64,000 nucleotides of DNA from Myxococcales bacterium (GCA_037446155.1 JBBIJE010000007.1:1765-65764); one strand, 5' to 3'. Shown: positions 2,503 to 63,200, numbered from the stretch's first letter. The notes: generated by a model not told the origin, from the letters alone. A program made the numbers and translations.

Positions 2503-2517
2503 TGGTTCCTCACCTCC

Positions 2518-4055: not shown

Positions 4056-4162
4056 GCCTCGAGGGGATTCTAGTTAGTGTGCGCTCGGTCTGTCAAGTCT
4101 CGATCGCCGCCCCGACACCAGCGGCGCCCGCCAGGGGTCGCAACCATCCCCTGGGGGCAGCT

Positions 4163-5302: not shown

Positions 5303-5495
5303 GCACCCCGACGCTTCCGCCTAGAAGGCGACCGATCTGAAAGTAGGCTTCGCTCGTGAACATGCAAGGGATACCACCAGCCCGGGGGCTGGCCACCTGG
5401 GCCCCAAAAGATACGGCGCCGATCTCCAGCCTTCCGAGGAAAGGAAGACTCGCTTGCGGCCCCCGCCGGCTCCGAGGCCAAAGGGCCTTGTGGCG

Positions 5496-8400
5496 TCATG
5501 GTGCGGGGAGCTTGACCGAGACCACTTTGGAGATACCAGGCTCTTCCATCGTGATCCCGTAAAGCGTGTCGGCTACCTCCATGGTCCGCTTGTTGTGGGT
5601 AATCAGAACGAACTGCGAGCGTTCGCTCGTCTCCTTGATTAGCGCGTTGAAGCGCCCGATGTTGGCGTCGTCCAGCGGTGCGTCCACCTCGTCCAGAATG
5701 CAGAACGGGCTCGGGTTGATGAGAAACAGGGCGAAGATCAAGCTCACCGCCGTCAGCGCTTTCTCCCCTCCGGATAGCAGATCGAGACTGCCAAGCCGCT
5801 TCCCAGGAGGCTGCACAGAAACCTCGACACCGGATTCGAGGGGCTTGTCCCCGTCCGTGAGCTTCAGAGTAGCCCGCCCTCCCGGGAAAAGTCGCGGAAA
5901 CACCGACTCGAAGCTCACCTTGACTTTCTCGAAGGTCTCGCGGAAACGCTCCCGACAAGTCCGATTCAGCCTGACCACCGTCCGTTGCAGATCTTCCAGG
6001 GACTTCTCCAAGTCCTTCTTTTGGCCGGCCAGGAATCCTCGACGCTCTTCGAGCTCCTTTAGCTCCTCCAAGGCCGCCGTACCCACCTCCCCCATAGCAG
6101 CCAGGCTTTCCCTGAGCTCCCGGACTCTGGCCCTCGTCGCTTCCTCATCGACCCCTTCAGCCGCAAAATCTCCGTCGGGAATTTCGCTTCCATAACGCTC
6201 TCTTATGGTCTGCTCCAGGTGCTCTATGCCAAGTCTCGCCTTGGTTCTCTCTACCTCGATATCGGCGAGACGCTGGCGCGTCTGCCGCAGCTCTCTCTCC
6301 AATGAATCGCGCTCGTTGCGCACCGCTTCGAGGAGCTGACGCGTCCCTTGAGCCTCGCAGGAAGCCCGGTGGGCCGCTTCCACCGCCGCTCGGTGAACTT
6401 CTCCCATCTTCTCCAGCTCACCCGCAAGCCGTTCCAGCCTGCGACGTTCTTCCTCCAGCTCCTCCTCGGCGCGCGCTATGCGCCTTTCGGTCTCTCGATG
6501 CCTAGCCCGATTATCCTCCAACGCATCCAAGAGATCGGCGAGGCGAGACTCGAGGGCAACCAGCCTTTCTTCAGCCTTGACGAGGGATATCTTCCCCTCG
6601 GTCAACTTCCTCGCGGTCTCCTCACGGGCGTTGCGCAGCGCCTGCACCCTGCTAAGCAAACTCTCGAGTGCCACCTCAGCCTGTTCCCGTCTCGCTCTGG
6701 CCTCCGCGAGCTCTAGCTCCGCGCGGGACCTCTCCTCCTGCGACCACAACCTTTGCTCCTCCAACTCGGATCGCTCGAGCTCTAGGCCCTCGAGCCTCTC
6801 CGCTGCCGACCGAAGCCGCGCACCAGCCAACTCGACATCCTTTTCCGCGCGCACCGCGCTCAGGGCGACCTCGTCCACCTCCGCTCCAATCCCCACCAAT
6901 GCTTGCCGTGCATCTTCTACCACACGGTCGAGGTGTGCCGCCCGTACCCTCCCCTCACCGAGCGCTCTTTCGGCCCGCTCCACCTCTTGCTCGAGTTCCC
7001 GCACAACTCTGCGCTGCGAGAGCAGACGCTGTTCGGCTCGCTCTTCGCTTCCCCCGCTCACGACCCCGCCGGCATCGACCACTTCGCCAGCGGGCGTTAC
7101 GAATGTCCAGGTTCCTCCGTTCCGCCGCCACATCGCAAGCGCCGTCTCCACATCCGACACGAGCAGAACATCGCCCAAAAGGTATTCGACCACCGGCTGC
7201 GCGCTCGCACGCGCAGCCACCAAGTCGGAAAGGCGCTGGGCACCACTTGGCACCTCTGCCACCCGCTTGAACCTGGGGAGCCGGGGTATGAAAGCAGCGC
7301 GTCCACCAGGTTCCGACTGCACCTGCCGAAGCAAGTGCAGTGCCTCCGCGTGACCCTCGACGATCAGGTACTGGAGCCGCTCTCCCAGCACAGCCGCGAC
7401 GGGTCGCTCCAGCGACTCCCGAACCTCGAGCGACTCCGCAAGCAGAGCGCATCCCTGCGCCTCCGCCCTTTTGAGCAAGCGCCTTACGCCTTCACCGTAG
7501 CCTTCGAGGTTTTCGCAAAGCCCCCGTAATGATTCGAGCCGAGAGCGTGCCTTGAGCAGCGCCGCTTCCTGTTCCTCGACAACGGCGAGCCACGCGCTAC
7601 GCTCCTGCTCCGCCCGCTCGAGAGCCAGCGCAGCCTGGCGTTTGGCCCCCTCTAGCTTCTCCACCTTCTCTCTCATCAGCCGCAGCGTATCCGCCGCTTC
7701 CCGAGAATCCTGCGCCGCCGCGGCGTGCTCTGCTTCCGCCTGTCGCACGAGTTCGTTCAGCTTGTTTCGCTCCTTCTCTTCCGCGGCTTCCCGAGACGCG
7801 GCCGTCTCGCACGCGTTGCGCGCCGCAGTCTCCGCCGCAAGACACTCGAAGGTGGCGGTTTTCGCGGCCTCCAAAGCGCTTTCTAGGCGCTCTAGCTCGG
7901 CGCACGTCGCCGCAAGGCTGCGCTCCCAGCGCTCCAACTCGGCTGCGGCTTCTTTCTTGGAAGATCCTCCGCGATCGATCCCGTCTCTAGTAGTGGCTAC
8001 CTCGCTATCGATCTCCGATAGCTTGCCGCGGATTGCCTCGAGCTCGACTCTGGCACGGGCCAATTCCGATTCCTCCGCCGCAATCCGGGCCCGCAGGAAA
8101 TCCCTCTCCTGCTCGCACCTGGCAATGGCTCCCTGGGCTCTGATCGCCTCCGCTTCCCGCTCCTTCGCCAGCGTATCCCTTGTTTCGAGTTCAGCCCCGA
8201 GGTCTCGCATCCGCTGGTCCAGCCCGGTCATTTTTTCTTCGGCGCCGCGCAGCGCCTGGGCCGCGGCGAAGCCCTCGACCTCTATGCACCACAATTTGTT
8301 GCGCCAGCGCCCACGCTCCAGCTGAGCCAACCAAAGGTCGAGTTGTTCCAATTCGAGCTTGCACTGCCGATATCTCTCCGCTTTCCTGGTTTGTCGCTTG

Positions 8401-17386: not shown

Positions 17387-20300
17387 ATGGTCTTTGGGCC
17401 TGTGGTACTTTTTGCGCTTTTTGCCACCGCCGCGATGCCGTCTGGTGCCGCGGCATCGGTTTGCGACGGCGCGCCCGCCTGCGTACCGGGCGGGGGGAGC
17501 ACGAGGACCGACTGCCTCGTCGAATGGCAAGTATTGCCTACACCGCCGCCTTCGAATGGCTTTCCCTCGGCCAGGATCGACTGCGTGGACGGGACCTCTT
17601 GCGACGGTGACGGGAGCGCCAACGGCGAGTGTTTGGTGTCGATAAATATCTGCATCAACAACGTCGATTCACGCTTGCCTGATTGCAACGCGGCCACGCT
17701 CGGCTTGCCGAAACTGGAGATCGCCTCGGTACAGTTGGCTAAACCACTGAAGGTGAAGCGCGACGGCTTCGACGCCGCCAACAAAGCGGCAATCATAGAA
17801 GCGCTTCGCAGCCTCAATGTACCCGTTACGGCGCGCGAGCTCGGGCTCTTGAGCTCGGGCGGCGGGAGTGCCGAGCAGGCCTGCACCGGCACGCCCCTGC
17901 GCTTTCGGGTTCCCTTGACGATACACCGGGGCGCGGTGACCAAGAGCCGAAAGACCATCAAGATTTTAGCCACTACCCCCCCGCCAGCGGGCGGCACCAA
18001 AGGCATCTTCGACCGGGACCGTCTCAAAATAAGTTGTCTTCCCAACCCGGCACCCCCATCGGTCGCCACCCCCCAACCGACCGGGATCGGCCCGAGTATC
18101 GTAAGCAACGCTACCGATCATCCCGTTCAAATCGAGGGGAGCGCGCTAGCGTCGGGGACGAGGCTCGTTTTGCAAAACCAACAGGGGAAGGAGTTGATGT
18201 GGCTCCCCACGGTCCACATCTCCGATTCTCTTTTGGCTGCGCTGGTCCCAGAGGGCTTTCCGGTTGCGGGAACGACGGCGCGACCGGAAGTGGAGGAGCT
18301 TCGAGCGGTGCTTGTTCACCCCTATCTGGCCGGTGTCGCGCCCGTCGTGCCGAACCGATTCACGGCGGTCGACGACCTGAATTTTACCAACCCCAACTCC
18401 GCAGCTCTCTCCCCCGACCAGAGCAAACTTTACATAACGAGCCCGCAAACGGACGAAGTTTGGGTGTACGACACCGCCGCCAACGCTTTCATCGACCAGG
18501 ACCCGCAGGAGCGGGGAGTTCAAGGGATACCGGTCGGCGACAACCCCTTTCACGTCGAGACTCTGAACCTCGGTGGCGGCAGCGGGTTGATTTGGGTGGT
18601 GAACCGGTTCTCGGATTTCCTCTCTCTGATCGACCCGGTGACCGACCGGGTGGTCGCCAGCGTCCCGGTTCTGAAAATGGCCCAGGAGGTGGAATTCGAC
18701 AACTCCGGGACGCGAGCGTTCGTGACCAACCAAAACCGCAACCTCGTCCAGGTCTTCGACATCTCCGGAAATCCCGAGGCACCGGTAGAGATCACCCGTG
18801 TCGAGGTCGGCATGAGCCCGCGAGGGATGGCGATAAATTCATCCGACACCAAGCTCTACGTCACAAACATCCAGACTGCCGACGTTAGCGTAATCGACGT
18901 GGACGAACAGAGCCCGACCGTCTACACCCTGCGCTCTACTCCAACGGGAATATCCATCCAGCCACGAGCCGGCGACGACATCGTAGGAGGCTTCGCGGAT
19001 GGCTGGGAGGCGTACATCATCGGAGGGCGAGCTCCGAGGGGGGTCGCTTACAGCCGCGCGCTCGACCACGTGTTCGTGAGCAGTGTGGGGCCGAACATCG
19101 GTCCCCGTCCGGGCGTGACCCCCGGTAGCATCAACGGCACGATCATGCACCCCGTGATCACCGTAATCGATGCGAGCACCGACGCGATAGTTCGCCATAT
19201 AGCCATCGAAGGGACCGATCCCGAGCAGATCGCCATCGATGACGACGCGCGACTACTCTACGTTGCCTGCCAAGGCTCGGGGCAGATAAGCGTCCTCGAC
19301 CTGAACCTCGCCACCGGCTCCGCCGCGCAAGCGAACGCTGCGGAGGTGGCGGTAATAGAACTCCCTCTCGCGCCGGGCAGCCCGACGCTGAGCCCACCGA
19401 TTTCCGTGACAGGGGATTACGGAGAGCGGCGCTGCGGTGGTGGCACGAACAATCGCCTACCCTGCCAGCAGGCCGCCGACTGCCCCGGAAGCCCGCTCGG
19501 CGAGCTGGCCTGCCGGCAAAACAATCCGGTCGGGCTGCACAACGGGCCGCGCGGAATAGCCATCGCCCAAGGCGGAAACCCGCTCTACGCCGTAAATCAG
19601 TTCACGCTGAGCGTAACCGAGATCGATACTAGCCTAGCGCCCAGTTTTGCAACCTCTGTGCCGGTCGTGTTCGGCGAGGGCGGCTTTGTCGAAAGGCTCA
19701 GACGGCTGGGACAGATTGATTTCTTTACCGATTTGCGGAACTCCAACGTGAGCTGCGCTACCTGTCATATCGACGACGGCCAGGATGGCCTCATTCATGA
19801 AGCCGATGTCGTCGGGCCGCGCTTGAGACGTGTCCTTTCGGTGCGAAATACCCGCGACATACCGCCGCTTCTACAGGATCAGCTCGTCCCCGATCTCAGG
19901 GCTTTCGTCGATCTCGTGGTACACCTGGAGCGGGACGTACCGGATGCGCAGGTGTGCCTGCCATGTACCAACTTGGGTTGCCTGTTCGACGGCTGCTTTC
20001 TCACGAGCGACCCGGACATGGAAGCCAACAAGGCGTACGTCGAGGACGTGGCGTTTTTCCCCAACCCGAACCTCAACCCTGACGGAAGTCTCTCGACCAG
20101 CGTTCCCTTGCCCGACGGAGGCACGGGCAACGCCGTATCGGGGGCCACCATCTTCGACACGCTAAACTGCGCGAATTGCCATCCCGGGCCTCTCTACACC
20201 ATCGACCAATTCCAGCCGACCGTCGTGAACTTCAGCGACCTCGTGCGAGGCGTCCGCATGCGGGGCGTGGGCACGCCCATCCACCAGTCGCTTCGCGACA

Positions 20301-20875
20301 TGTGCCAAGACGACACGCGCCCGGTCCCGAAACAGGGGGCGTTTTGCGTGGGAGGAGCCAACGCGGGGCTGCCTTGTACCGAGACGAGTGCGTGCCCCGG
20401 TGGAAGCTGCGAGGGAACGTGCGTGGGCGGGACGAACAACGGGCTGCCCTGTTTGACAGATGCCGATTGCCCGGGCGGGCCGCCGAGCAATCCCGCCAGA
20501 TGCGGCCACGAGGGATTCGGGGTGCCCACGCTACGCGGCATCTGGGACTCCTTTCCCTTGCTGCTTAGCGGCTCCGCTGGCCTCGGCATCTCTCCGGGCG
20601 CCGAGCCAGCGGTAACCTGCACCCGAGGGTCCCGAGCCGGCCTGCCCTGTTCGGACGACTCCGATTGTCCCGGTGGGGAGTGCCTTTGCAGCGACCTCGC
20701 TAATCCCGCCAACCCCTCAGGCGTGGCAGTCCCCGAGCGACACCAGGTCATGACGGAGCGCAACGCACTTCGCTCGGTGCTTACGGCGAACAATCCCGTC
20801 GGCGCCCACGGCAACACGGCTGGCCTGACCGCCGAGGAGCTCAACGACCTCATGGCGTTTATTCTGTCGCTCTAA
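17387..20875 (+). CDS. Large secreted multidomain protein: Cys-rich N-terminal region + YVTN-type beta-propeller repeats + di-haem cytochrome c peroxidase/MauG-like domain interrupted by four Cys-rich repeats
   Basis: 1162 aa. Signal peptide MVFGPVVLFALFATAAMPSGAAAS. Repeated LYVTN/VYD propeller blades (LYITSPQTDEVWVYD, AFVTNQNRNLVQVFD, LYVTNIQTADVSVID, LLYVACQGSGQISVLD, LYAVNQFTLSVTEID). Two CxxCH haem sites (CATCH, CANCH) plus GVPTLRGIWDS and a C-terminal LTAEELNDLMAFILSL typical of CCP/MauG. Four copies of C-x-G-G-x-N-x-G-L-P-C-x4-D-C-P-G-G-x(n)-C. Confidence 0.7.
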   Translation: MVFGPVVLFALFATAAMPSGAAASVCDGAPACVPGGGSTRTDCLVEWQVLPTPPPSNGFPSARIDCVDGTSCDGDGSANGECLVSINICINNVDSRLPDCNAATLGLPKLEIASVQLAKPLKVKRDGFDAANKAAIIEALRSLNVPVTARELGLLSSGGGSAEQACTGTPLRFRVPLTIHRGAVTKSRKTIKILATTPPPAGGTKGIFDRDRLKISCLPNPAPPSVATPQPTGIGPSIVSNATDHPVQIEGSALASGTRLVLQNQQGKELMWLPTVHISDSLLAALVPEGFPVAGTTARPEVEELRAVLVHPYLAGVAPVVPNRFTAVDDLNFTNPNSAALSPDQSKLYITSPQTDEVWVYDTAANAFIDQDPQERGVQGIPVGDNPFHVETLNLGGGSGLIWVVNRFSDFLSLIDPVTDRVVASVPVLKMAQEVEFDNSGTRAFVTNQNRNLVQVFDISGNPEAPVEITRVEVGMSPRGMAINSSDTKLYVTNIQTADVSVIDVDEQSPTVYTLRSTPTGISIQPRAGDDIVGGFADGWEAYIIGGRAPRGVAYSRALDHVFVSSVGPNIGPRPGVTPGSINGTIMHPVITVIDASTDAIVRHIAIEGTDPEQIAIDDDARLLYVACQGSGQISVLDLNLATGSAAQANAAEVAVIELPLAPGSPTLSPPISVTGDYGERRCGGGTNNRLPCQQAADCPGSPLGELACRQNNPVGLHNGPRGIAIAQGGNPLYAVNQFTLSVTEIDTSLAPSFATSVPVVFGEGGFVERLRRLGQIDFFTDLRNSNVSCATCHIDDGQDGLIHEADVVGPRLRRVLSVRNTRDIPPLLQDQLVPDLRAFVDLVVHLERDVPDAQVCLPCTNLGCLFDGCFLTSDPDMEANKAYVEDVAFFPNPNLNPDGSLSTSVPLPDGGTGNAVSGATIFDTLNCANCHPGPLYTIDQFQPTVVNFSDLVRGVRMRGVGTPIHQSLRDMCQDDTRPVPKQGAFCVGGANAGLPCTETSACPGGSCEGTCVGGTNNGLPCLTDADCPGGPPSNPARCGHEGFGVPTLRGIWDSFPLLLSGSAGLGISPGAEPAVTCTRGSRAGLPCSDDSDCPGGECLCSDLANPANPSGVAVPERHQVMTERNALRSVLTANNPVGAHGNTAGLTAEELNDLMAFILSL

Positions 20876-21021
20876 GGTCGATTCGAGGGCGGAAAAGCCA
20901 ACGCCGGGAACGATGTCGCCGAGCTGGGCGGATCGGTTCGAGTTTGACTGAAGGCAACGCGCACTCTAATTCATGGGGACGAAGGCACGTGGTCTGCAAA
21001 CGAGGAGAAGCGGGGCTTACC

Positions 21022-21651
21022 ATGGGCGGGATTGTCCTCGCCGGCGGCCGCAGTAAGCGCATGGGATCGGCCAAGGAATGGCTCGACTTCGCCGGCGTTC
21101 CCATGTTACGGCGCGTCGTGGAGACCGTGGCTTCGCAGACCGCGCCGGTTGCGGTCGCAAGGAGCAAGGGCCAGGCGCTTCCACCCCTTCCCGCCGACAT
21201 CATCCTGACGGAGGATGAGGTGGACGACTGTGGGCCTCTCGGAGGGCTTGCGGCCGGGCTGGCGGCTCTAGAGGGTGCCGCCGATGCGGTTTTTCTTTGT
21301 TCCTGCGATGTACCGCTGCTTAAACCGGCCTTTATCCGCCTAGTGGCCCAGTCGCTCGGTGACTACGACATCGCCGTTCCGTGGGTCGCGGGACGGTACC
21401 ACCCTCTGGCTGCCGCCTACCGAGGCCGGTTGCTTCCGGTAGCGAGGAAACTCTTGGCGGCGGGCGAGCGCAGAATGCACTTCCTTTTCCCCGAAGCCCG
21501 CGTTAGGGTCTTGGAGCCCCCCCTCTTGCGCTCGGCCGACAGCGCTCTTTACTCGCTTCTGAACTGCAATACGAAAGAGGAATACCGGGAGCTTCTTCGG
21601 CTCTTCGACACCATCGGTGAAACGACACGAATCAGCGGCGAGGCGAGTTAG
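21022..21651 (+). CDS. mobA: Molybdenum cofactor guanylyltransferase MobA
   Basis: GIVLAGGRSKRMG motif and the LxxDxP region of MobA. The true start is likely the MGGIVLAGG methionine; the track ORF begins at 20944. Confidence 0.8.
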   Translation: MGGIVLAGGRSKRMGSAKEWLDFAGVPMLRRVVETVASQTAPVAVARSKGQALPPLPADIILTEDEVDDCGPLGGLAAGLAALEGAADAVFLCSCDVPLLKPAFIRLVAQSLGDYDIAVPWVAGRYHPLAAAYRGRLLPVARKLLAAGERRMHFLFPEARVRVLEPPLLRSADSALYSLLNCNTKEEYRELLRLFDTIGETTRISGEAS

Positions 21652-50765: not shown

Positions 50766-51686
50766 ATGTTGATACTCGCCCTTGGCGCTAGTTTGATCCT
50801 CGTCCTTCTTTCGCCCCAGGTCGCCCTCGCCTGGGGACCCTTGACTCACCTAACGCACGGGGCAACGGTACTCGATGGTCTTACCACGCTCTCCCCGGCG
50901 CTTCAAGAATTGCTCGGCGCCAACCGCATGGCCTACCTCTACGGTTGCGTAGGCGCCGACATCGTGCAAGCGAAAAGATACGCGAGCAGCCTTCGCACTC
51001 ATTGCCACAGCTGGCACGTCGGGTGGAAAATGCTGGCCGAAGCGGGCAGCGACATCGAGCGCGCGTTCGCGTACGGGTACCTCTCTCATTTGGCAGCGGA
51101 TGTCTTCTCGCACAACCATTTCGTGCCGCTTCAATTGATCGCGAGCTATCGAAGCCGCACTCTCCTCCACGCGTACTGGGAAGCTCGTTTCGACGCCTTG
51201 CAACCGCGAAAGAATCGGGCTCTGCTCGCCCAAGTCTTGCGCCGCCTTTACCCTCAGTGCGATCGACTGATGGAGCGCGTGGTCGAGAGAACCCTGTTTT
51301 CCTTCCGGACGAACAAGCGCATCTTCAACTCCGTAATGGCCTTGCAGCGACTCGAGCAGTGGCAGGCTTTGATGCAACGGGTGGGAGAGCGCTCGCGCTA
51401 TCCCTTGGGGGAGGCTACGGTGGAGCGGTACAACCAGCTTTGCGCGCAAGCGATCGCCTCGCTGCTGGCCAAAGGTAGGCGCGCCCATTGCGTCAAGAGC
51501 GATCCGACCGGTGCCCAGAATATTTCGCGCGCCCACGAGATTCGTAGAAAGCTCAAGCGACTGCAGCGACGAGGCCGGCTCGACCAAATGACGATGGCGA
51601 GTCTGATCGAGAAATACCTTCCCGAACTTTCGCGCGGACAGCCAGGGACAGAATTGCAACACTGGCAAGTTCCCGGGCCGGGCTAG
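50766..51686 (+). CDS. Secreted zinc-dependent phospholipase C / S1-P1 nuclease superfamily protein
   Basis: Signal peptide; mature N-terminus AWGPLTHLTHG resembles the Trp1/His Zn-ligand start of PLC/P1 nuclease, and HLAADVFSHNH resembles their central His cluster. Confidence 0.4.
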   Translation: MLILALGASLILVLLSPQVALAWGPLTHLTHGATVLDGLTTLSPALQELLGANRMAYLYGCVGADIVQAKRYASSLRTHCHSWHVGWKMLAEAGSDIERAFAYGYLSHLAADVFSHNHFVPLQLIASYRSRTLLHAYWEARFDALQPRKNRALLAQVLRRLYPQCDRLMERVVERTLFSFRTNKRIFNSVMALQRLEQWQALMQRVGERSRYPLGEATVERYNQLCAQAIASLLAKGRRAHCVKSDPTGAQNISRAHEIRRKLKRLQRRGRLDQMTMASLIEKYLPELSRGQPGTELQHWQVPGPG

Positions 51687-52265
51687 TTACGAACCCCCGC
51701 CACGGGACACGATCGGCCAGGGACACCCGCACGCGCGCCACTGGCGAAGCTTTTCCAGGTAGCGCCCGCGCAATTGCTTGAAGAAGCTGAGGGCGCGAGG
51801 CTCGGCATAGTCCCTGTAGGTAGTGCGAAGCGCCCGAAAGGAGCCGCTCTCGAAAAGGAGCGTTACCTCCCCGAACACACCCTCTCCCAGGTAGAGCCGA
51901 TGGGGCGCCGACTTACCCGATGCGAGAGCGACTTTACCGGCGTCGACGTAACCGGGATCGACATTGACCCGCCGCCTAACCTCGTCGTCCGAGACGCGGG
52001 CTAGAGCCCTCTCGATTTCCCGCGCCTCCCACTTTAACGAAACGAGCGATTCGGGGGAGACGAGCGCATCGAAGCCGAGGAATTGCCGGAAGAGGACCCG
52101 CCCCATTTCGCGTTCGTAATAATCGCTGTATGACCAGCGGTAGCTGGGCGAGCGCGACCACACGGCACCTATCCGCGCCTCGAGAAGCGCTTGCGCCCGC
52201 CGCAACGCCTCTACGTCGCACGCCAGAAGGGCCGCGATCGGAAGGACCGGCTCCGGCCGGGAAAC
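51687..52265 (-). CDS. DUF4416-family protein
   Basis: WSYSDYYEREMG...NVDPGY motifs as I remember them for DUF4416. The start is placed at an internal V so as not to overlap coaBC; the track ORF runs to 52325. Confidence 0.4.
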   Translation of the reverse strand, partial: VSRPEPVLPIAALLACDVEALRRAQALLEARIGAVWSRSPSYRWSYSDYYEREMGRVLFRQFLGFDALVSPESLVSLKWEAREIERALARVSDDEVRRRVNVDPGYVDAGKVALASGKSAPHRLYLGEGVFGEVTLLFESGSFRALRTTYRDYAEPRALSFFKQLRGRYLEKLRQWRACGCPWPIVSRGGGS

Positions 52266-52284
52266 TTTACTTGCATCCCCAAGC

Positions 52285-53523
52285 TCACCGGCTCCGCCTG
52301 CCGCTTCGTGTGGCCTCGCGCACATCGAGCAACCTTACCAGGCGGTCCAACAAAATGTCGGCGATCTCGTCCTTGTCCTTTTTGGGCAGCCGCTGCGGTT
52401 TAGCGCCGCGCTCGACGATCGTGACGATATTGGTATCGGAGTCGAAACCAGCGCCGGGCTGGCTGACGTCGTTGGCCACTATCATATCGACGCCTTTGCG
52501 CTCCAGTTTCTCCTTGGCACGCTCGTCGACGCTTCCCGTCTCGGCCGCGAATCCGATCAGCACCGAACTTCGGTGTGCCCCGCCGAGCTCGCCCAAAATG
52601 TCCGGGTTGGGCTCGAGCCGAAGCGAGAGAGCGGAGCCGATGCGTCTGATCTTGGTCGTGCGCGGCTTCGCGACCCTGAAATCTCCAACCGCCGCCGCCA
52701 TGATGATTGCGTTGGCTCGAGGTGCAGAAGCTAGCACGGCACGACGCATCTCCTCCGCAGAAAGGACCCTGGTGAAGTTCACGCCCCTGGGAACAGGCAA
52801 GGTCGTGGGGCCAGATACCAGATCCACCTCGGCCCCGCGCCGCCTCGCCGCCCGCGCAATGGCGAACCCCATTTTGCCGGAGGAACGGTTGGCAATGTAC
52901 CGGACCGGATCGAGCGCCTCCCAAGTCGGGCCGGCGGTCACGAGGATTCGCTTGGCGGCGAGGTCGTCGGGCTGGAGCGCGCCGGCCACCTCCTCGACCA
53001 GCTCCACCGGTTCCGGCAGCCTCCCCCTACCCTCGTATCCACACGCCAGATCGCCCTCCGCCGGCTCGATCACCCGAAAGCCGAGCTCCCTAAGCCGCCT
53101 CACGTTAGCTTCGACCCGGCGATCCTCGAGCATGTGCACATTCATGGCCGGCGCCACGCACACCGGGGCCCTGGTAGCGGCGATCACCGTGGTGAGCAAG
53201 TCGTCGGCTATGCCGACCGCGAGCTTGGCAATTATGTTCGCCGTGGCCGGAGCGACGACGACCGCATCTGCCCTCTCGGCCAGGCCGATGTGACCTATCC
53301 GGGCTTCCTCGGCCAGGTCGAAGACCGATGTCCCAACGGGGTTGCCAGAGAGAGCCTGAAAGGTAAGCTCGCCCACGAAGTTGCGCGCACCGGCCGTCAT
53401 GATCACGCGCACGGAAGCTTCCTGCTTGACGAGCAGGCGCACCAGCTCAGCGGCCTTGTACGCGGCAATCCCCCCGCTCACGCCCACGATGATGTTCTTG
53501 CCCTTGAAGACGTGTTGGAGCAT
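52285..53523 (-). CDS. coaBC: Bifunctional phosphopantothenoylcysteine decarboxylase / phosphopantothenate-cysteine ligase CoaBC
   Basis: Flavoprotein N-domain ([14 protein letters not shown]) and DFP C-domain ([11 protein letters not shown]). Confidence 0.9.
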
Positions 53524-53539: not shown

Positions 53540-54529
53540 CTAACTCGGTCTCTCCGCCCGCCTGATCTCTTCGAGGCCGACCCCCTGGTAAATGAGACAG
53601 GCCGCCCCGAGAGCCACTTGCGTGACGAACTGTACCGCATGCGCGAATACAGAATAACCCAGCGCCTGCCCTGGCGAAATACCGTAAATACCGAGCGCCA
53701 CTTGGCACCCCGCCTGGAAGGTGCCAATGAAACCCGGGGCCGAGGGCGCGGCAACGGCGACAGCGACCCCCACAACAACCACCACGGAACCCCACACAAA
53801 TGGCACTTCCAACTCCAGGGCAAGAAAGCCCATCCCGAACGAGGCTGCGATAACCCCCCAAAGCACAGCCGACCAACCAGCGGCTTGGAGCAACGCAGCG
53901 CCGCTGCCCAAGGCCTGCAACCCGGCCACGAATCCTTCCACCAGCCTGAGCGTCCTGTCCCGTAGGGCCCCGGGCATGCGCGCCGCCACCGCTTCCACCA
54001 AACCAAGAGCGATCCGGCTCCTTCTCTGGAGGAGGATAGTCACGAGCAACAAACCCAGCGCCAGCGCAAATGGCACCGATGCCCAGGCCCGCAACTTTCC
54101 CGCGTCGGGCAGGGAAACGAGCACCATGCCGAGCATGAAAAGCACGCTCAACATGTCGAACAACCGCTCGAGCAGAGAGCTTCCCAGCAGGCCGGCGAGC
54201 GGAATGCCGAGCCAGCGTCCGAGCAGGTAGGGCTTCACCACCTCGCCCGCCCGACCGGGGAGCACCATGTTGCAAAAGCCGATACCGATGGCCGTCGACG
54301 AAAAAAGCGGGCCGAGCCTGAATTCACCGAGCGGTCGAAGCAACACCCTCCAGCGCAGCGCTCGTATGTAGAAGGTACCGACACCCAAAATTACCATGGG
54401 AACCAGATAAAAGTAGTGAGCTCCGCGCAATGCCGCCGACACCTCAGCCCAATCGACTCCTAGCGAAGCGTACCATAACCCGCTGGCTGAAATGGCGACG
54501 GCAGACAAGGCCGCAAAGCTACGGCGCAT
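53540..54529 (-). CDS. UPF0104 / lysyl-PG-synthase-TM-region family (flippase-like) membrane protein
   Basis: 329 aa, ~8 TM helices, [13 protein letters not shown] motif characteristic of TIGR00374. Confidence 0.65.
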
Positions 54530-54690
54530 CGCTCCCCCGGCGCCTCGATCCCCAAAGCGTCAGGCCGATACCCGCCAGCAGGAGCGACCAGCCGAAAGGC
54601 GGCCAGAGAGCATCGAGAACCGCTCCGGCTCCGAGCAGACTCAGGTAGACGCCCAATACGACCGCGGCACCCATGCGCCCTGCCTACCCC

Positions 54691-55431
54691 TCAATCGAGC
54701 CTTCTCAGAACGATGGCCACCCGTTCGATGGCCGTCGCCTGACTGAGAACGGCGACCGCCACGAGGCTCGCGGCAAGCAACGGGTGGGCGGGCGTGCAAA
54801 ACAGGTTGCCGAATATGACGTCAAAGATCGATCCGAATCCCAGCACCACGTACCTTTCGGGCCTTTGCATCATGCCTGCCTTGCAATCGACCCCCAGCGC
54901 TGCCGCCCGCGCACGCACGTAGCTAACGAGCAAGCTCCCAACGAGCGCTATCACCGCGACCGGTCCGAGCCAACTTCCCCGGTAAAAAAACCCGAGTCCC
55001 GCGTACGGGAAAAGCTCCGCGTACCTGTCCCCCACCGAATCGAGAAAGGCGCCCCGGTTGCTCACCTTACCCGTGGCGCGCGCCATGTAACCATCCAGCA
55101 CGTCCAGCGTGCCGCTGCCGATGAGAAGCCAGCCGGCCGTAAAGAGCCGCCCGCAATAGTATGCAAGACCTACTAGAACGCTTACGCCGATCTGCACCGC
55201 CGTGAGCCAGGCCGGGTCGATGCCACGGCGCACCAGGGCATCGCCCAAAGGCGCCACGGCCTCGGAAAGCCAAGCGCGCAGCCGAAACCCGAGCAGGCCG
55301 GTCGCCGTGGGTGCTGCCGCGCCTTCGGGCCGAGAAAATAGGGGAAGGAAATTACGCAGACAAAGATACGCGATCGCCAGTAAGACGGCCAGAGCTAGGG
55401 TTGGCCGGCATGTGGGCTCTGCCGCCGGCAC
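54691..55431 (-). CDS. CDP-alcohol phosphatidyltransferase (probable phosphatidylinositol-phosphate synthase type)
   Basis: DG(x)2AR(x)8G(x)3D(x)3D motif: DVLDGYMARATGKVSNRGAFLDSVGDRYAE. Its start lies 3 nt from the ino1 stop. Confidence 0.8.
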   Translation of the reverse strand: MPAAEPTCRPTLALAVLLAIAYLCLRNFLPLFSRPEGAAAPTATGLLGFRLRAWLSEAVAPLGDALVRRGIDPAWLTAVQIGVSVLVGLAYYCGRLFTAGWLLIGSGTLDVLDGYMARATGKVSNRGAFLDSVGDRYAELFPYAGLGFFYRGSWLGPVAVIALVGSLLVSYVRARAAALGVDCKAGMMQRPERYVVLGFGSIFDVIFGNLFCTPAHPLLAASLVAVAVLSQATAIERVAIVLRRLD

Positions 55432-55433
55432 CC

Positions 55434-56552
55434 CTAATTGTCGATCTCGCCACGGATAAACTTCTCTACCCGCTCGCGAGCCAAATCGTCAGCCATCTGG
55501 ACGGGGGGATGCTTCATGAAATACGCGGAGACACTGTGCAGCGGCCCCCCGATGCACCGATCGCGGGCCAGCCGGCAACACCTGATAGCATCGATGGCCA
55601 CCCCGCCGGAGTTGGGGCTGTCTTCGACCGAGAGCCGAAGCTCCAGTTCTATGGGAACTCCGGCGAAGCCCCGGCCCTCTACCCGCAGGAAACAAACTTT
55701 GTTGTCGCGCTGCCAGGGCACGTAGTCGCTCGGACCGATGTGGATATCCTGGGCGGGCATGCGCTCGGGCATGACACTTTGGACCGCCTCGGTTTTCGAA
55801 ATCTTTTTGGACCCCAAACGGGTGCGATTCAACATGTTGAGAAAGTCGGTGTTGCCACCCGTATTGAGCTGATACGTGTGCTCGAGCTTGATGCCCCGGT
55901 CGGAGCAAAGCTTCGCAAGTGCCCTGTGCACGATGGTCGCCCCGAACTGCGACTTGATATCGTCTCCAACGGCGGGAATGCCGCGGCTCGAAAATCGCTC
56001 GGCCCAAACTCGATCCGACACGATGAAAACAGGCATGCAGTTTACGAACCCAACTCCCGCCTCGAGGCACGCCGTGGCATAGTATTCCGTAGCACGCTGG
56101 CTTCCAACCGGCAGATAATTGACCAGTACCTCTGCCCCGGTTCTCTTGAGCACTGCGGCGACATCCACGGGCGGTAGCTCGGCAAGTACGAAGGTTTGAT
56201 CTTCCGGATACTGCAGCATGTGCTCCGACACCCCGTCGAGCACTGGCCCCATCTGCACGGTGACTCCCGACGGAGGTAGCTTCTCGACGATCCTCCTCGT
56301 GTTGTTCGGTTTGGCGAAGGCCGCAACCTCGAGTGGGAATCCCACTTTTCGGACGTCGACGTCGAAGGCACACACAACCTCGATGTCCTCCGGCCTGTAG
56401 CCGGCCAGGTCGTAATGCATGAGGCCCACATGGTCGGCCCGCGCCGCTTCGCCCGCCTGACGGTAATACTCGATGCCCTGCAGAAGGCTGCTGGCACAGT
56501 TACCAACGCCAGCGATGCCGAGTCGTATCTTCCCCATTTTCACCTTCCCCAT
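55434..56552 (-). CDS. ino1: myo-Inositol-3-phosphate synthase (Ino1, prokaryotic short type)
   Basis: N-terminal Rossmann IRLGIAGVGNCASSLLQG, central NTGGNTDF region, ~370 aa as in archaeal/bacterial MIPS. Confidence 0.8.
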   Translation of the reverse strand: MGKVKMGKIRLGIAGVGNCASSLLQGIEYYRQAGEAARADHVGLMHYDLAGYRPEDIEVVCAFDVDVRKVGFPLEVAAFAKPNNTRRIVEKLPPSGVTVQMGPVLDGVSEHMLQYPEDQTFVLAELPPVDVAAVLKRTGAEVLVNYLPVGSQRATEYYATACLEAGVGFVNCMPVFIVSDRVWAERFSSRGIPAVGDDIKSQFGATIVHRALAKLCSDRGIKLEHTYQLNTGGNTDFLNMLNRTRLGSKKISKTEAVQSVMPERMPAQDIHIGPSDYVPWQRDNKVCFLRVEGRGFAGVPIELELRLSVEDSPNSGGVAIDAIRCCRLARDRCIGGPLHSVSAYFMKHPPVQMADDLARERVEKFIRGEIDN

Positions 56553-56722
56553 GCGGCCATGGCCGACGCCACTGTGAAGATACCCTAGCCCGTTCCGTTT
56601 AGCACAAGCGTGCGAAAACTCAACAGAAAGCGAGCGGTTTTATAGCCGATAGGTCCCCAGTTGTAAAGTGCGCCTCCAGCCCCTGGGCTTCTCCTGCCCG
56701 GGATGATCGCGTCACTTTGCGG

Positions 56723-57058
56723 CTACTTTTTACGGAAGCGCGAGGGAAAGTCTGGGGGAAACTCTTGACCGGGGTGTAAGCGCTTTGCCTTTTCCAACAG
56801 TTGCTCCTCGGTCTCCTCGTCGTCTGGATTTGGGACACAGCAATCGACCGGGCAAACCGCCGCGCATTGTTCCTGGTCAAAGAAACCGACACACTCGGTG
56901 CACTTCTCCGGCACTATGTAGTATATATCGTCTTTCAACGCCGGCTTTTTCTCGCCATTATGCTCCCACTCCACCCCACCCTCGTAAATCGCCGTGTTGG
57001 GGCATTCTGGTTCGCAAGCTCCGCAGTTGATGCACTCCTCCGTTATCATCGTGGACAT
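56723..57058 (-). CDS. 2x[4Fe-4S] ferredoxin
   Basis: [12 protein letters not shown] and [18 protein letters not shown] cluster motifs. ATG at 57058 (MSTMITEEC) checked on the sequence. Confidence 0.8.
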
Positions 57059-57326: not shown

Positions 57327-58355
57327 GTGAGCAATCAACCCGAAGAAGGCCATTCAAGCTACCCGAGCGGCGCCCCAGGGGCCGGCGAGCGAAACCCGGG
57401 CAACTCGGCCGCATTCGATCTCGTCGCCGAGGAATTGGCGCAAGTCGAGCGCAAGATCGGCAAGCTCCTGGCGTCACGCGAGCCCCTGCTTTCGGAAATA
57501 GGCTCCTATCTTCTTTCCGCCGGCGGCAAGCGCATTCGGCCTACGGTGGCTGTCCTGATTTTTCGCGCATGCGGCGGCATCGGCAACCAGGACATAGTCG
57601 ATGTCGCGGTAGCGCTCGAGCTCATTCACTCGGCGACTCTGTTGCACGACGACATCATAGACGGGGGAGGCGTGCGCCGAGGCCAGCCCTCGGCCCTGGC
57701 CACCTACGGGTTGGGCAGCACCCTGGTGACAGGCGACTTCCTCTTCAGCAAAGCGTTTCAACTTTGCGGCAGATTCGAGGAGCGGATAGTCGATTGGGCG
57801 GCACAAGCATGTATCGCGTTGACCGAAGGGGAGATAATGCAGAGCCGATTTCGGCGCAACCCCAGCGTTACCATCGACGACTACTTGGAAATAATTACCC
57901 GCAAGACCGCGTCCCTTTTCTGCCAGGGGGCGCGCGTGGCGGCTTATCTTGCCAAGAGCGACGAGGCCACCGTCGAGGCCATGTGGGAGTGTGGGCTCAA
58001 CATCGGCATGGCGTTTCAGATAATCGACGACATCCTCGACGTGGACGGGGATAGCCGCGTTACCGGCAAACCCGTGGGAGCGGATCTACGTGACGGGAAC
58101 CCGTCCCTTCCCGTAGTGCTGGCGTTGGCCCGGGAACCGGCCGTGTATCGGGTGTTCACCCAACCCGCATCCTCCCCAGCGCAGATAGCGGAGGCGCGCT
58201 CCCGGATCAGGACCAGTGGGGTAATTCCCATCGCTCGAAAGCTCGCGTCGCAATACGCTGCGCGCGCTCGCTCGTTTCTCCTCGGCCTGCCTGAATCGAC
58301 GTTCCACCGAGGCCTGACCAACCTGATCGACCTTATCGAAGGACGGCAATTGTAG
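57327..58355 (+). CDS. Polyprenyl diphosphate synthase (IspB/GGPPS family)
   Basis: First DDxxD (LLHDDIIDGGGVRRG) and second DDxxD (QIIDDILD) motifs. Confidence 0.85.
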   Translation: MSNQPEEGHSSYPSGAPGAGERNPGNSAAFDLVAEELAQVERKIGKLLASREPLLSEIGSYLLSAGGKRIRPTVAVLIFRACGGIGNQDIVDVAVALELIHSATLLHDDIIDGGGVRRGQPSALATYGLGSTLVTGDFLFSKAFQLCGRFEERIVDWAAQACIALTEGEIMQSRFRRNPSVTIDDYLEIITRKTASLFCQGARVAAYLAKSDEATVEAMWECGLNIGMAFQIIDDILDVDGDSRVTGKPVGADLRDGNPSLPVVLALAREPAVYRVFTQPASSPAQIAEARSRIRTSGVIPIARKLASQYAARARSFLLGLPESTFHRGLTNLIDLIEGRQL

Positions 58356-58366
58356 GGCGGTGTGCC

Positions 58367-58930
58367 CTAGCCAGTTCCTACGATTCCCTTGGCTTCGCTA
58401 TTGTAGGGCTCGACCTTCTTGCTCTTGACGTCCACCCGCCAGACCGCGCTCTTGCGCTCGCGCAGGCTCCCCTCCTCCCAGGAAAAGGTGACATAGTAGC
58501 TGGATTCGTCCCCCTGCTTCGCGTGCCAGCTCACGCTGGTAACCTCAACCCCATCTTGCTTTCGCTTCTCCACGACCTGGCTGGCACGCTGCTCGAGGGT
58601 CACGCCTCCGACATCGGACCCCTTGGCGATGGCAATCGCCTCCTCGCCGCGGCCGGCGTAGGAATCTCGGGTCTGCGACGAAGCCATGTAGAGGATAACG
58701 CCGACGATCGCCAGCGAAGCGACTGCAATTCCCACCATGATCCACGCAAAGCCCGCACCCCTGTTACTGTGCCAGACCCTACCCTTCTCCATTGTGTTCG
58801 CTACCTCCTTAGTCATACCGTCTGCCGGCGGCGCCAGCCCCCGACCGACCTGCTCGAACCCAAGGGCTGCCGGGCGTCGCCCGAGAACCGTACCAACGCA
58901 GGGCACCTGTGGTGACGCGCCGCGCACCAA
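58367..58930 (-). CDS. Hypothetical membrane-anchored protein
   Basis: Single TM (FAWIMVGIAVASLAIVGVILYM) and a ~110-aa soluble C-terminus. No family recognised; the probable start is MTKEV or MEKGRV. Confidence 0.35.
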   Translation of the reverse strand: MVRGASPQVPCVGTVLGRRPAALGFEQVGRGLAPPADGMTKEVANTMEKGRVWHSNRGAGFAWIMVGIAVASLAIVGVILYMASSQTRDSYAGRGEEAIAIAKGSDVGGVTLEQRASQVVEKRKQDGVEVTSVSWHAKQGDESSYYVTFSWEEGSLRERKSAVWRVDVKSKKVEPYNSEAKGIVGTG

Positions 58931-61269: not shown

Positions 61270-61998
61270 TTACTGCCCACCGGGAATCGCCCCGTGATCC
61301 TCGCCGACGCTCTCTCCCCAGAGAAACTCCGCGAGCGCTCGGCTGGTGAAATCTCTGCACACAATGTCGGCGCCCGCCTCGACGAGCTCGGCCGCGCGAT
61401 GGGTGGTCGTGAGCGCGGCGCACGCCATGGCCGCCCGCTTGGCAGCGGTAACGCCCGATATGGAGTCCTCTATCACCAAACACCGCTCTTCCTTTACGCC
61501 GAGCTGTCGCGCCGCGGTGAGAAAAACCGCCGGGTGCGGTTTACCAAGCCCCACCTCTTCTGCCAGCACGATCGCGCCGAAAAACCCTCCGACCCCCAGC
61601 CTCTCCAGGATCAGCTCCACATTTTGACGACACGCGGATGTCGCCAAGCCGAGCGACAGACCACTCGCGCGGGCACGACTCAAGAAGCCCTCGAGGCCGC
61701 GGATCGGCTCGATGTGACCCGCCACCAAGGCACGAAAGATCTCCTCTTTGCGCGCCGCCATTTCGCGGATTCGTGCTTCGTCGCCGCGAAGACCCCAAAG
61801 ATTCACTATTCCCTCCTCGGTACGCCACCCGAATACCTTGCGCCGCAGTTCCTCCTCGCTCACTCGTCTTCCCAGCTCGCGACAGAATCTTCTCCAGGCG
61901 CGACGATGAAAAGGATTCGTATTCATGAGCACGCCGTCCATGTCAAACAACACCGCCCCAAAGGCGCAAGCGCGCGTGTCCCTCTTTTCCCTGCTCAT
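61270..61998 (-). CDS. HAD-superfamily hydrolase (subfamily IA, beta-phosphoglucomutase-like)
   Basis: Motif I FDMDGVLMNT, motif II LATSA, motif III/IV (K...IEDSISGVTAAKRA). Start at MSREKRD; the track ORF extends to 62319. Confidence 0.75.
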   Translation of the reverse strand: MSREKRDTRACAFGAVLFDMDGVLMNTNPFHRRAWRRFCRELGRRVSEEELRRKVFGWRTEEGIVNLWGLRGDEARIREMAARKEEIFRALVAGHIEPIRGLEGFLSRARASGLSLGLATSACRQNVELILERLGVGGFFGAIVLAEEVGLGKPHPAVFLTAARQLGVKEERCLVIEDSISGVTAAKRAAMACAALTTTHRAAELVEAGADIVCRDFTSRALAEFLWGESVGEDHGAIPGGQ

Positions 61999-62189
61999 CG
62001 CAAACGGCGGCCCCAGCACATTTTCAGGCAGCTCTATCGGAAAAGGTGGCGTGGAGCAACGAGCACCTGCGATTTGCGAGCGGCTCGGCCCACACCGCTT
62101 TATCCCTCTCGGCACGGCCTGCCACTTGACCGGCCCGCTTTCCCCCCTCGCTGGACACTGCCAGCCTCCTCCCGTTAGACTGCGCTCCC

Positions 62190-63200
62190 ATGGCTGGAAG
62201 GGATCGACTCGCCGTTGGCAAGCTGCCGCGTCCGTTGCTGGAGCGGCTGGTTCGCTACCGGGGTGCCGCCAGCAAAAAAGTCCTGCTAGGCCCCGCGATC
62301 GGGGAAGACGCTGCCGCACTCAAAACCCCAGCGGGCCACCTAGTGGTGGCCACAGATCCCGTAACCTTCACCGCGGCGCACGCGGGCTGGTATTGCGTGC
62401 ATATAAACGCCAACGACGTCGCCGTATGCGGGGCTAGGCCACTTTTTTTCCAGTCCTGCATCATCCTTCCCGCTCGCGCGCCCACCTGGGCGCCACTTGC
62501 GGCGGCACGGGAGATCCACCGCGCGGCCAGGCATCTCGGGGTCGCCGTCACCGGAGGCCACACTGAGGTCAGTCCCGTCGTTACTCAGCCCGTTATCGTG
62601 GGAACGATGCTTGGAGTCGCCAGGCGCCTCGTGCGTTCAGCGGGTGCAAGACCGAAACAACTTCTCGTGCAGGTGGGCTTCGCCGGGATCGAAGGATCCG
62701 CCATCCTGGCGCGACAGGCCCCGGCGCGCGTGCTCGCGAAACTCGAGAAAGCCGAACGGCGGTGGGTCGCAAAGAGCCTTGCCGCCCCTCCTATCTCGGT
62801 AGTCGACCAAGCGCTTGCGGCGACAAAACTAGGCGCCAGTGCCATGCACGATCCCACCGAGGGGGGGATAGCGGCGGGCGTCCACGAACTCGCCATGGCT
62901 TCGCACTGCGCCTTGGAGATAGATCTCGACCGCGTTCTCCAGAGGCCTGCGACCCTGGCGCTTTGCGACTATTTCGGGCTCGATCCCTTGACCCTGCTCA
63001 GTTCTGGGGCGCTGCTGGTCGCGATGCCCGAGTCCAAGGCGCGAAATTTCCTATCTTACGGAAAACGAAAGGGTTGGGCGGTCGCACTCATCGGGCGAGT
63101 GGGCCGCGGCCGTGGAATCAGGGCTACGAAGGCAGGGAAAAGGGTAACGCTCGCGTGGCCGAGCCGCGACGCAATTGCCGAGCTCGTCGAGGAGGAGTAA
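62190..63200 (+). CDS. AIR-synthase-related (PurM-like) protein
   Basis: PurM fold motifs (GEDAAAL, VATDPV, GGHTEVS, MHDPTEGG). It lacks the C-terminal PRIC motif of HypE. Confidence 0.65.
   Translation: MAGRDRLAVGKLPRPLLERLVRYRGAASKKVLLGPAIGEDAAALKTPAGHLVVATDPVTFTAAHAGWYCVHINANDVAVCGARPLFFQSCIILPARAPTWAPLAAAREIHRAARHLGVAVTGGHTEVSPVVTQPVIVGTMLGVARRLVRSAGARPKQLLVQVGFAGIEGSAILARQAPARVLAKLEKAERRWVAKSLAAPPISVVDQALAATKLGASAMHDPTEGGIAAGVHELAMASHCALEIDLDRVLQRPATLALCDYFGLDPLTLLSSGALLVAMPESKARNFLSYGKRKGWAVALIGRVGRGRGIRATKAGKRVTLAWPSRDAIAELVEEE

Follow-up and report, generated by a model that had tools for sequence, protein, structure and literature searches.

The window considered here, a stretch of 64,000 nucleotides (nt) from a genome labelled Myxococcales bacterium (GCA_037446155.1 JBBIJE010000007.1:1765-65764), contains a run of minus-strand genes spanning 51.7–57.1 kb that, judging from its sequence, very likely directs the synthesis of phosphatidylinositol phosphate (PIP) or phosphatidylinositol (PI). 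The core of the run consists of ino1, predicted to encode myo-inositol-1-phosphate synthase (MIPS), a gene for a putative, divergent phosphatidylinositol-phosphate synthase (PIPS), a short gene for a 51-residue hairpin membrane protein and a gene for a membrane protein of the PF03706 family (also known as UPF0104 and referred to below as PplT) that is modelled with the fold of the MprF transport domain. The scheme taken as a whole, in which these genes form an operon, MIPS feeds PIPS for the production of PIP, the 51-residue protein serves as a subunit of the synthase and PplT translocates the lipid, is probable, if well short of certain.

Among bacteria, inositol phospholipids are considered to be rare. 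The route from MIPS to PIPS is a known one that is found here in a new lineage, with an extra transmembrane helix on the synthase, the hairpin partner and usually an MprF-type translocator as clade-specific features. The locus brings a credible de novo route to PI(P) into an environmental Gram-negative group that is abundant and uncultured, provides a compact system in which the function of stand-alone MprF-domain (UPF0104/PplT/YbhN) proteins and a substrate preference derived from their partners can be approached, and adds a new family of small membrane proteins that is almost invariably coupled to one PIP synthase clade. Current understanding is not overturned by these findings.

Organisation of the locus

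The features of the locus are as follows, with scores in bits (related loci from other contigs are given L numbers).

57327–58355, plus strand: polyprenyl diphosphate synthase, long-chain type, divergent from the operon (PF00348, 225)
56723–57058, minus strand: YfhL-type 2x[4Fe-4S] ferredoxin (NF033683, 97.8 against a cutoff of 86)
56639–56667, minus strand: promoter-like element, TTTACA-17 nt-TATAAA, conserved with L008
56611–56630, minus strand: conserved block of 20 nt in the 5' untranslated region, CTTTCTGTTGAGTTTTCGCA, conserved with L008
55434–56552, minus strand: ino1, predicted myo-inositol-1-phosphate (inositol-3-phosphate) synthase, 372 residues (Pfam Inos-1-P_synth, 121)
54691–55431, minus strand: PIPS-like CDP-alcohol phosphatidyltransferase, 246 residues (PF01066, 51)
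54519–54674, minus strand: two-helix (hairpin) membrane protein, 51 residues, an open reading frame (ORF) between the transferase and PplT genes
53540–54529, minus strand: PF03706/UPF0104/PplT membrane protein, 329 residues (LPG_synthase_TM, 145; TIGR00374, 61)
52285–53523, minus strand: bifunctional coaBC (TIGR00521, 450)
51687–52325, minus strand: DUF4416 protein (family search)
50766–51686, plus strand: secreted Zn-dependent phospholipase C (PLC)-like protein, convergent with the operon (PF00882, 69)

The original prediction, made from the sequence of the window, had named the ferredoxin, ino1, transferase, flippase-like and coaBC genes, all of which are found where it placed them on the minus strand, and had described the polyprenyl synthase gene as divergently transcribed, which it is. 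Two details of spacing differ. The distance between ino1 and the transferase gene is 2 nt rather than 3 nt, and the ferredoxin gene, said to lie immediately upstream, does precede ino1 but is separated from it by a 170-nt spacer with a promoter-like element. The ORF for the 51-residue protein was missing from that prediction, and of all the partners it is the one most tightly linked to the transferase.

From ino1 through the transferase, the 51-residue ORF and PplT to coaBC, successive genes are separated by 2, 16, −11 and 16 nt, and the GC3-rich codon signature (G or C at third codon positions) of the operon genes is that of the remainder of the window. The arrangement is far beyond chance; dozens of independent contigs share it, and their transferases are 42–68% identical to that of the window. 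It is proposed that ino1, the PIPS-like transferase, the 51-residue protein, PplT and coaBC make up one tightly packed transcription unit. As called, the DUF4416 gene shares 41 nt with the 3' end of coaBC, and it follows coaBC in many of the related loci, although not in all.

The myo-inositol-1-phosphate synthase

The product of ino1 is assigned by homology as a MIPS (EC 5.5.1.4), as had been supposed. The catalytic and tetramerisation domain Inos-1-P_synth (PF01658) is present, scoring 121 bits against a cutoff of 27 with residues 204–312 spanning the full profile, and residues 8–368 match Mycobacterium tuberculosis Ino1 (1GR0) with 407 bits (E 8e-121), essentially the full length of the protein, a match that takes in the NAD-binding motif GVGNCASS. 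With 207 bits, half of the 1GR0 score, the five-membered-cyclitol-phosphate synthase 6K96 comes second among the solved relatives.

The CDP-alcohol phosphatidyltransferase

Three lines of evidence, namely family models, active-site residues and fold, place the transferase with the enzymes that use inositol phosphate. With curated NCBIfam models, it scores 139 bits for archaetidylinositol-phosphate synthase (AIPS), 117 for PIPS and 104 for the BT1523-type PIPS, against 44 for DIPPS, 34 for PgsA and 25 for PssA. By sequence, the proteins of solved structure closest to it are M. tuberculosis PgsA1, to which it is 29–30% identical, Mycobacterium kansasii PIPS and Renibacterium salmoninarum PIPS.

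In PgsA1, metal ions are bound by aspartates D68, D71, D89 and D93, and the inositol-phosphate pocket is formed by R94, S132, Y133, K135, R137, R152, R155 and R195 (PMC6506517). The CDP-alcohol motif D1xxD2G1xxAR...G2xxxD3xxxD4 is complete in the transferase of the window (D110, D113, G114, A117, R118, G127, D131 and D135) and its residues are invariant across the alignment of the clade. A MAFFT alignment with PgsA1 places R136, S170, Y171, R173, R175, R190, R193 and R237 in the pocket, the sole change being Lys135 to Arg (R173 of the transferase), and the catalytic and pocket residues are also kept in 20 homologues, isolated exceptions aside.

The AlphaFold (AF2) model of the transferase has a predicted local distance difference test (pLDDT) score of 91, and its top 14 Foldseek matches in the PDB are all structures of bacterial PIPS (E-values of 3e-7 to 9e-6), followed by AF2299 and DIPPS (4e-5 to 9e-5), while PSS and PgsA are matched at 6e-3 or more weakly. 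Outside the canonical fold, which consists of αA and six further helices, the model contains an extra N-terminal transmembrane helix (residues 10–33, pLDDT >90) that is carried by the clade. The transferase is also coupled in the genome to the source of inositol phosphate: in addition to the 2-nt spacing, ino1 adjoins the transferase gene in 22 of 29 related loci (neighbours were counted over about 50 loci of the close clade, with the loci that have enough flanking sequence as denominator throughout).

The expectation that this is not an ordinary PgsA or PssA is thus borne out by the family models, the fold and the pocket residues, and the transferase appears to belong to a divergent branch of PIPS rather than being a textbook orthologue. 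As the synthase upstream of it carries the expected C-terminal domain, the combination of MIPS with a short CDP-alcohol transferase keeps the significance originally attached to it, PIP synthesis rather than synthesis of di-myo-inositol phosphate (DIP). The bacterial, diderm context points to CDP-diacylglycerol as the lipid donor and to PIP as the product.

The archaeal enzyme shares the inositol-phosphate-dependent chemistry and is the top-scoring curated model, 22 bits above bacterial PIPS, and the original prediction had allowed for a product of the archaetidylinositol-phosphate type. The transferase would then be AIPS-like and use an isoprenoid ether donor of the CDP-archaeol type, with the polyprenyl synthase encoded divergently nearby supplying the chains of a mixed or archaeal-type inositol lipid. 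The AIPS match is, however, uninformative, because bacterial controls behave in the same way. When homologues from clearly bacterial contexts were scored against the same models, AIPS exceeded PIPS and remained below the cutoff in every control, including those from a Chloroflexi operon of the phosphatidylinositol mannoside (PIM) type, from a Bacteroides-like Polyangiaceae cluster and from several other contexts, and an archaeal-type lipid as a conclusion from the top score was rejected on these grounds. The score in the window likewise lies below the AIPS cutoff (180 bits), and the best solved relatives are actinobacterial PIPS.

Nor does the gene context favour an archaeal-type lipid. The polyprenyl synthase has solanesyl, heptaprenyl and octaprenyl synthases as its best NCBIfam matches, and its first aspartate-rich motif (SATLLHDDIID) has small residues at the chain-length positions −4 and −5, as in Escherichia coli IspB, which suggests a long-chain product; it looks like an enzyme of quinone side-chain synthesis and not of archaeal lipid synthesis. 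Within the window there is no gene for GGGP synthase, DGGGP synthase or a CarS-like protein, and BamA, TamB, Mla and SecDF are the hallmarks of an ordinary diderm bacterium. An archaeal-type product is therefore highly unlikely.

The 51-residue membrane protein

The ORF for the 51-residue protein starts 16 nt past the transferase stop codon and overlaps the start of PplT by 11 nt. Its product consists of a pair of hydrophobic helices with a short loop between them and an Arg-rich C-terminus, and its GC3 of 0.75 resembles that of the neighbouring genes. Homologues at the same position in six related loci (L008, L009, L010, L011, L013 and L017) are 41–43% identical to the protein of the window and share invariant Gly, Leu, Asp and Arg positions.

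A wider set of 80 metagenome loci was collected with a profile of the transferase clade; a contig scan with the single transferase sequence returned only weak PgsA-like matches from unrelated genera. A hidden Markov model (HMM) of the small protein matches directly downstream of the transferase in 31 related loci (7 earlier ones, the window included, and 24 new ones) with E-values of 1e-8 to 1e-19. In each of the 14 loci missed by the HMM, a divergent version was found on reading the gap between the transferase and the next gene, and these share a pattern of roughly G-F-x(3)-L-G-x-G-x-x-[LM]-[DE]-[ST]. In about 45 of 46 related loci, then, a transferase of this clade is followed by the small protein, whose ORF usually lies close to the transferase gene or overlaps it, and which is kept even in the three loci without PplT (L025, L033 and L037).

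Outside this context the family is elusive: no Pfam family fits, a word-indexed search recovered only copies that are 86–88% identical, and a full HMMER scan of 1.84 billion representatives returned the protein's own cluster only. The 51-residue protein is proposed to be translationally coupled to the transferase, and we infer that it acts as an accessory subunit of this clade-specific, seven-helix PIPS.

The PplT protein

The next gene product scores above the family cutoffs for PF03706 (145 bits against 33) and TIGR00374 (61 against 43), and its AF2 model has a pLDDT of 90.8. No match at the level of sequence to any solved structure was obtained with either the single sequence or a profile. 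Foldseek against the PDB yields six MprF structures as the only confident matches, each with a probability of 1.00, the rest being at noise; the query-normalised TM-scores to MprF are 0.39–0.61, and five of the six lie at 0.54–0.61. The predicted structure matches the N-terminal transmembrane (transport) domain of MprF.

For this domain, a role as general phospholipid translocator of prokaryotes has been put forward under the name PplT, of which most prokaryotes encode one, and the genes for E. coli YbhN and ClsB stand in one operon (bioRxiv 10.1101/2022.03.11.483950). In the gpgSDF operon of Pseudomonas aeruginosa, the flippase is predicted to be a UPF0104 protein (PMC12713373). In vitro, P. 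aeruginosa MprF is a promiscuous and energy-independent scramblase, the translocation so demonstrated being that by the full-length protein, and it has been suggested that its preference in vivo stems from the associated enzyme, which would raise the local concentration of a lipid (PMC11980842). In Bacteroidetes, a gene annotated as lysylphosphatidylglycerol synthase (a homologue of BT_1521), which was not studied there, stands beside both types of inositol-lipid cluster (PMC9246714), and by analogy this appears to be an independent occurrence of the pairing between synthase and MprF-related protein.

PplT is translationally coupled to the small partner of PIPS, given the 11-nt overlap of the two genes. 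A role in translocation of the head group or lipid is plausible from the modelled fold, and PplT is a candidate scramblase for the inositol lipid.

Evidence against the assignment and alternative roles of the genes

Several findings weigh against the pathway as drawn, and they concern both the enzymes and the conservation of the neighbourhood. As regards the enzymes, ino1 matches TIGR03450 (mycothiol_INO1) over its full length with 430 bits, which is under the cutoff of 638. This miss probably reflects lineage and not function, because the name of the model points to the actinobacterial (mycothiol-linked) Ino1. The transferase lies under all of the curated equivalog cutoffs, which are 170 bits for PIPS (NF045883), 180 for AIPS (NF040950) and 350 for BT1523 (NF052561), and it is on this account that it is placed on a divergent branch; the PIPS homologues in PIM-type and Bacteroides-like contexts are likewise under these cutoffs.

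In addition, no PIP phosphatase, whether PgpA-like, PAP2, IMPase-type or other, is present among the genes of the window. The only HAD hydrolase gene (61270–62319) was considered for this step and rejected, as it encodes a soluble protein of the β-phosphoglucomutase family in another transcription unit. The phosphatase of the bacterial PI pathway was not identified until Bacteroides BT_1525 (PMC9246714), and its absence from the window is a gap and not a contradiction.

The scores below the PIPS cutoffs, and the inclusion of DIPP synthases in the CDP-alcohol phosphotransferase family, could also be taken to mean that the product is a soluble or specialised inositol phosphodiester (a DIP-type osmolyte), or that the enzyme uses some other phosphorylated alcohol. 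Against this, the DIPPS model gives only 44 bits where its cutoff is 580, the inositol-phosphate site and overall fold fit a lipid-dependent PIPS, and ino1 is translationally coupled to the transferase. Furthermore, the argument against DIP synthesis that had been made from the lack of an IPCT nucleotidyltransferase holds across the window: there is no IPCT gene, no nucleotidyltransferase is fused to the transferase, and the sole NTP_transf_3 gene (20944–21651), tried as an IPCT, was rejected because it is MobA-like, 33 kb away and outside the operon. Such a product is very improbable, and PIP is retained as the predicted one.

As regards the neighbourhood, ino1 is missing upstream of the transferase in L013, L027, L028, L031, L040, L055 and L067, and the PF03706 gene lies downstream of the transferase and small ORF in 23 of 26 loci, being absent from L025, L033 and L037. 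A more distant PplT (34% identity) adjoins a gene for a GT4 glycosyltransferase and not a PIPS, so the pairing of PIPS with PplT is specific to this clade. Among the homologues of PIPS and PplT that were retrieved, none was fused to the small protein. A collinear block comprising polyprenyl synthase, MoaA, Mrp, coaBC, UDG, NfeD, QueA, TGT and SecDF extends across the lineage, and since the wider block is collinear the adjacency is partly inherited. Moreover, coaBC is found downstream in every locus with enough flank, those without PplT included, and its linkage is as tight as that of PplT, so that a position beside the transferase by itself says little about function.

These observations bear chiefly on PplT, which may be a housekeeping scramblase like E. 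coli YbhN with no special tie to inositol lipids, in which case the functional module would consist of ino1 and the transferase, perhaps together with the small protein. The equal linkage of an unrelated housekeeping gene such as coaBC, the synteny of the whole neighbourhood across the lineage, the three loci in which PplT is absent although ino1, PIPS, the small ORF and coaBC are there, and the distant relative beside GT4 are all compatible with such a role, as are the promiscuity of the MprF domain and the presence of a single PplT, the proposed general translocator, in most prokaryotes (bioRxiv 10.1101/2022.03.11.483950). A real link is nevertheless favoured by the 11-nt overlap that couples PplT to the small ORF in translation, by the persistence of the pairing in those 23 of 26 loci at only ~35–50% protein identity, and by the phylogenetically independent association in Bacteroidetes inositol-lipid clusters. 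A purely housekeeping PplT is on balance unlikely, although it deserves serious consideration, and the role of PplT as translocator of the inositol lipid is carried forward here.

The loci without PplT read ino1, PIPS, small ORF and coaBC, and the flank is rearranged in at least L025 and L037. In these two, the Band7-NfeD-UDG block, which comes after coaBC in the window, is inverted and lies upstream of the polyprenyl synthase, so that one rearrangement seems to have removed PplT and the PLC-like gene together. The latter gene is present in most of the PplT-bearing loci but not in all, being absent from L038 and L052, which have PplT, and from L033 and L037, which do not; with its absence from L038 and L052 it is a doubtful co-varying partner of PplT. 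The signal peptide of the Zn-PLC-like protein ends ...VALA|W, so that the mature protein would begin with Trp, as do Bacillus cereus PLC and α-toxin. The protein has no match among solved structures or in NCBIfam.

The ferredoxin gene lies upstream in 16 of 24 loci, L025, L033 and L037 being among the 8 exceptions. Where ino1 is missing, the ferredoxin gene directly precedes the transferase in several loci (e.g. L026–L028 and L067), and where the ferredoxin gene is missing, ino1 comes directly after the polyprenyl synthase in several others (L024, L025, L033 and L037). The ferredoxin, coaBC and polyprenyl synthase genes are probably conserved backbone neighbours and not parts of the pathway.

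Proposed pathway and comparison with known systems

In the proposed pathway, Ino1 would cyclise glucose-6-phosphate to 1L-myo-inositol-1-phosphate, and the transferase would move the phosphatidyl group from CDP-diacylglycerol to the inositol phosphate to give PIP, following the mycobacterial and Bacteroides route. A phosphatase encoded elsewhere would then convert PIP to PI. The 51-residue hairpin protein may contact the seven-helix synthase as its accessory subunit, and PplT may carry the new inositol lipid to the periplasmic leaflet, with a preference that would arise from co-expression and proximity and not from structural selectivity.

A more elaborate version can be envisaged, in which the seven-helix PIPS needs a hairpin subunit of 50–90 residues with a conserved Asp/Glu at the membrane interface, and in which this enzyme and a stand-alone MprF-type scramblase work as a split synthase-plus-translocator, supplying the periplasmic leaflet with an anionic inositol lipid that could be dephosphorylated or built upon there, possibly by the Zn-PLC-like enzyme. 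A multi-part machine of this kind is a speculative and rather doubtful extension.

The actinobacterial pathway, represented by M. tuberculosis Ino1 and PgsA1 and by the R. salmoninarum and M. kansasii PIPS, has in common with the locus Ino1, the catalytic motif, the inositol-phosphate residues and the fold of αA plus six helices. The locus of the window differs in the extra N-terminal transmembrane helix, the 51-residue hairpin partner, the pairing with PplT and coaBC, the lack of adjacent PatA and PimA genes, the diderm host and the transferase score below the NCBIfam equivalog cutoff.

The Bacteroides thetaiotaomicron cluster BT_1521–BT_1526 also combines MIPS and PIPS via a PIP intermediate, has a neighbour annotated as lysyl-phosphatidylglycerol synthase, which by its annotation fits an MprF-related protein, and contains a small-to-medium integral membrane protein within the cluster (Heaver et al. 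2022, PMC9246714). In contrast to that cluster, the window locus is without a PgpA-like PIP phosphatase, a PAP2-type inositol-phosphoceramide synthase and a GtrA protein; the transferase reaches 104 of the 350 bits demanded by the BT1523-type model, and its partner is the 51-residue hairpin rather than GtrA.

The co-encoding of a head-group enzyme with an MprF transport-domain protein is shared with MprF itself and with operons of stand-alone PF03706 proteins (E. coli clsB-ybhN and P. aeruginosa gpgSDF). Unlike in these MprF systems, the partner in the window is a CDP-alcohol transferase predicted to make an anionic inositol lipid, and not an enzyme of charge-reducing aminoacyl or glycosyl modification, and unlike in MprF, the synthase and translocator are separate proteins and not fused.

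Transcription signals

The spacer between the ferredoxin gene and ino1 contains the promoter-like element followed by the 20-nt block. Both are conserved in L008 (2260–2316), a 68%-identity relative, and in no more distant locus. A scan for consensus promoters and terminators gave signals no more frequent than in shuffled sequence; it missed TTTACA-17 nt-TATAAA because its rule demands T at the last −10 position and this hexamer ends in A. The spacer folds no better than shuffled sequence (z = −0.64), and neither the Rfam nor the tRNA scan of the window gave a match. Upstream, the ferredoxin gene has GGAGG 7 nt ahead of its ATG.

The layout points to a promoter preceding ino1, in which case the ferredoxin gene upstream would be transcribed separately or by read-through, and the 20-nt block could be the binding site of a regulator.

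Host lineage

Other genes of the window (BamA, TamB, MlaEFD, SecDF, SMC and RNase Y) form a diderm housekeeping set. Among relatives at 41–47% identity, the labels are 'Candidatus Bin...' and 'Deltaproteobacteria', 'Myxococcales' or 'Dehalococcoidia' bacterium, and all NCBI names starting with 'Candidatus Bin' belong to Binatota. The host is an uncultured diderm lineage near metagenome-assembled genomes labelled Binatia or Deltaproteobacteria. No report tying Binatota or Binatia to inositol lipids came up in a search of the literature.

Distant homologues and other genes of the window

More distant homologues of the transferase also occur in inositol-lipid contexts, which are of PIM type (ino1, PatA-like, GT4 and PIPS) or Bacteroides-like (PAP2, PIPS::GtrA and MMPL::PgpA). 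The former is found in a Chloroflexi metagenome-assembled genome (L020, 2751–6684), where a helix-turn-helix regulator, ino1, a PatA-like acyltransferase, a PimA-like GT4 and PIPS follow one another, and by analogy this operon suggests PIM-type glycolipid synthesis outside Actinobacteria. The latter is found in Polyangiaceae-type loci (L016, 5075–10261, and L083), in which PAP2_3, a PIPS::GtrA fusion and an MMPL::PgpA fusion form a fused counterpart of BT_1522–1525, suggesting that the transporter–phosphatase fusion handles PIP.

PIPS-like genes also stand within sphingolipid-style clusters in L014, L015, L018 and L019 (~1000–6800). A serine-palmitoyltransferase-like aminotransferase and an acyltransferase are present in L014, L015 and L019 but not in L018, and all four contain a DAGK_cat lipid kinase and a protein of 333–369 residues, the stop codon of which overlaps or abuts the start of PIPS. 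This protein was considered as a divergent MIPS and rejected, its only matches being weak and nucleotidyltransferase-like.

The distant metagenome matches L071–L102 have equally short N-terminal matches, and the two examined, L084 (5977–8610) and L097 (5959–8583), contain ORFs of ~875 residues directly after a glnD-like (PII uridylyltransferase) gene, which fuse an N-terminal PIPS-like transferase, TPR repeats and a C-terminal SLT lytic transglycosylase.

Within the window, a 187-residue single-pass membrane protein is encoded at 58367–58930 (minus strand), between the polyprenyl synthase and moaA, and its C-terminal part is weakly SepH/DUF3071-like, below the cutoff. At 17387–20875 (plus strand), a 1162-residue protein has β-propeller repeats of the lactonase/YNCE type and, around residue 920, resembles cytochrome c weakly.

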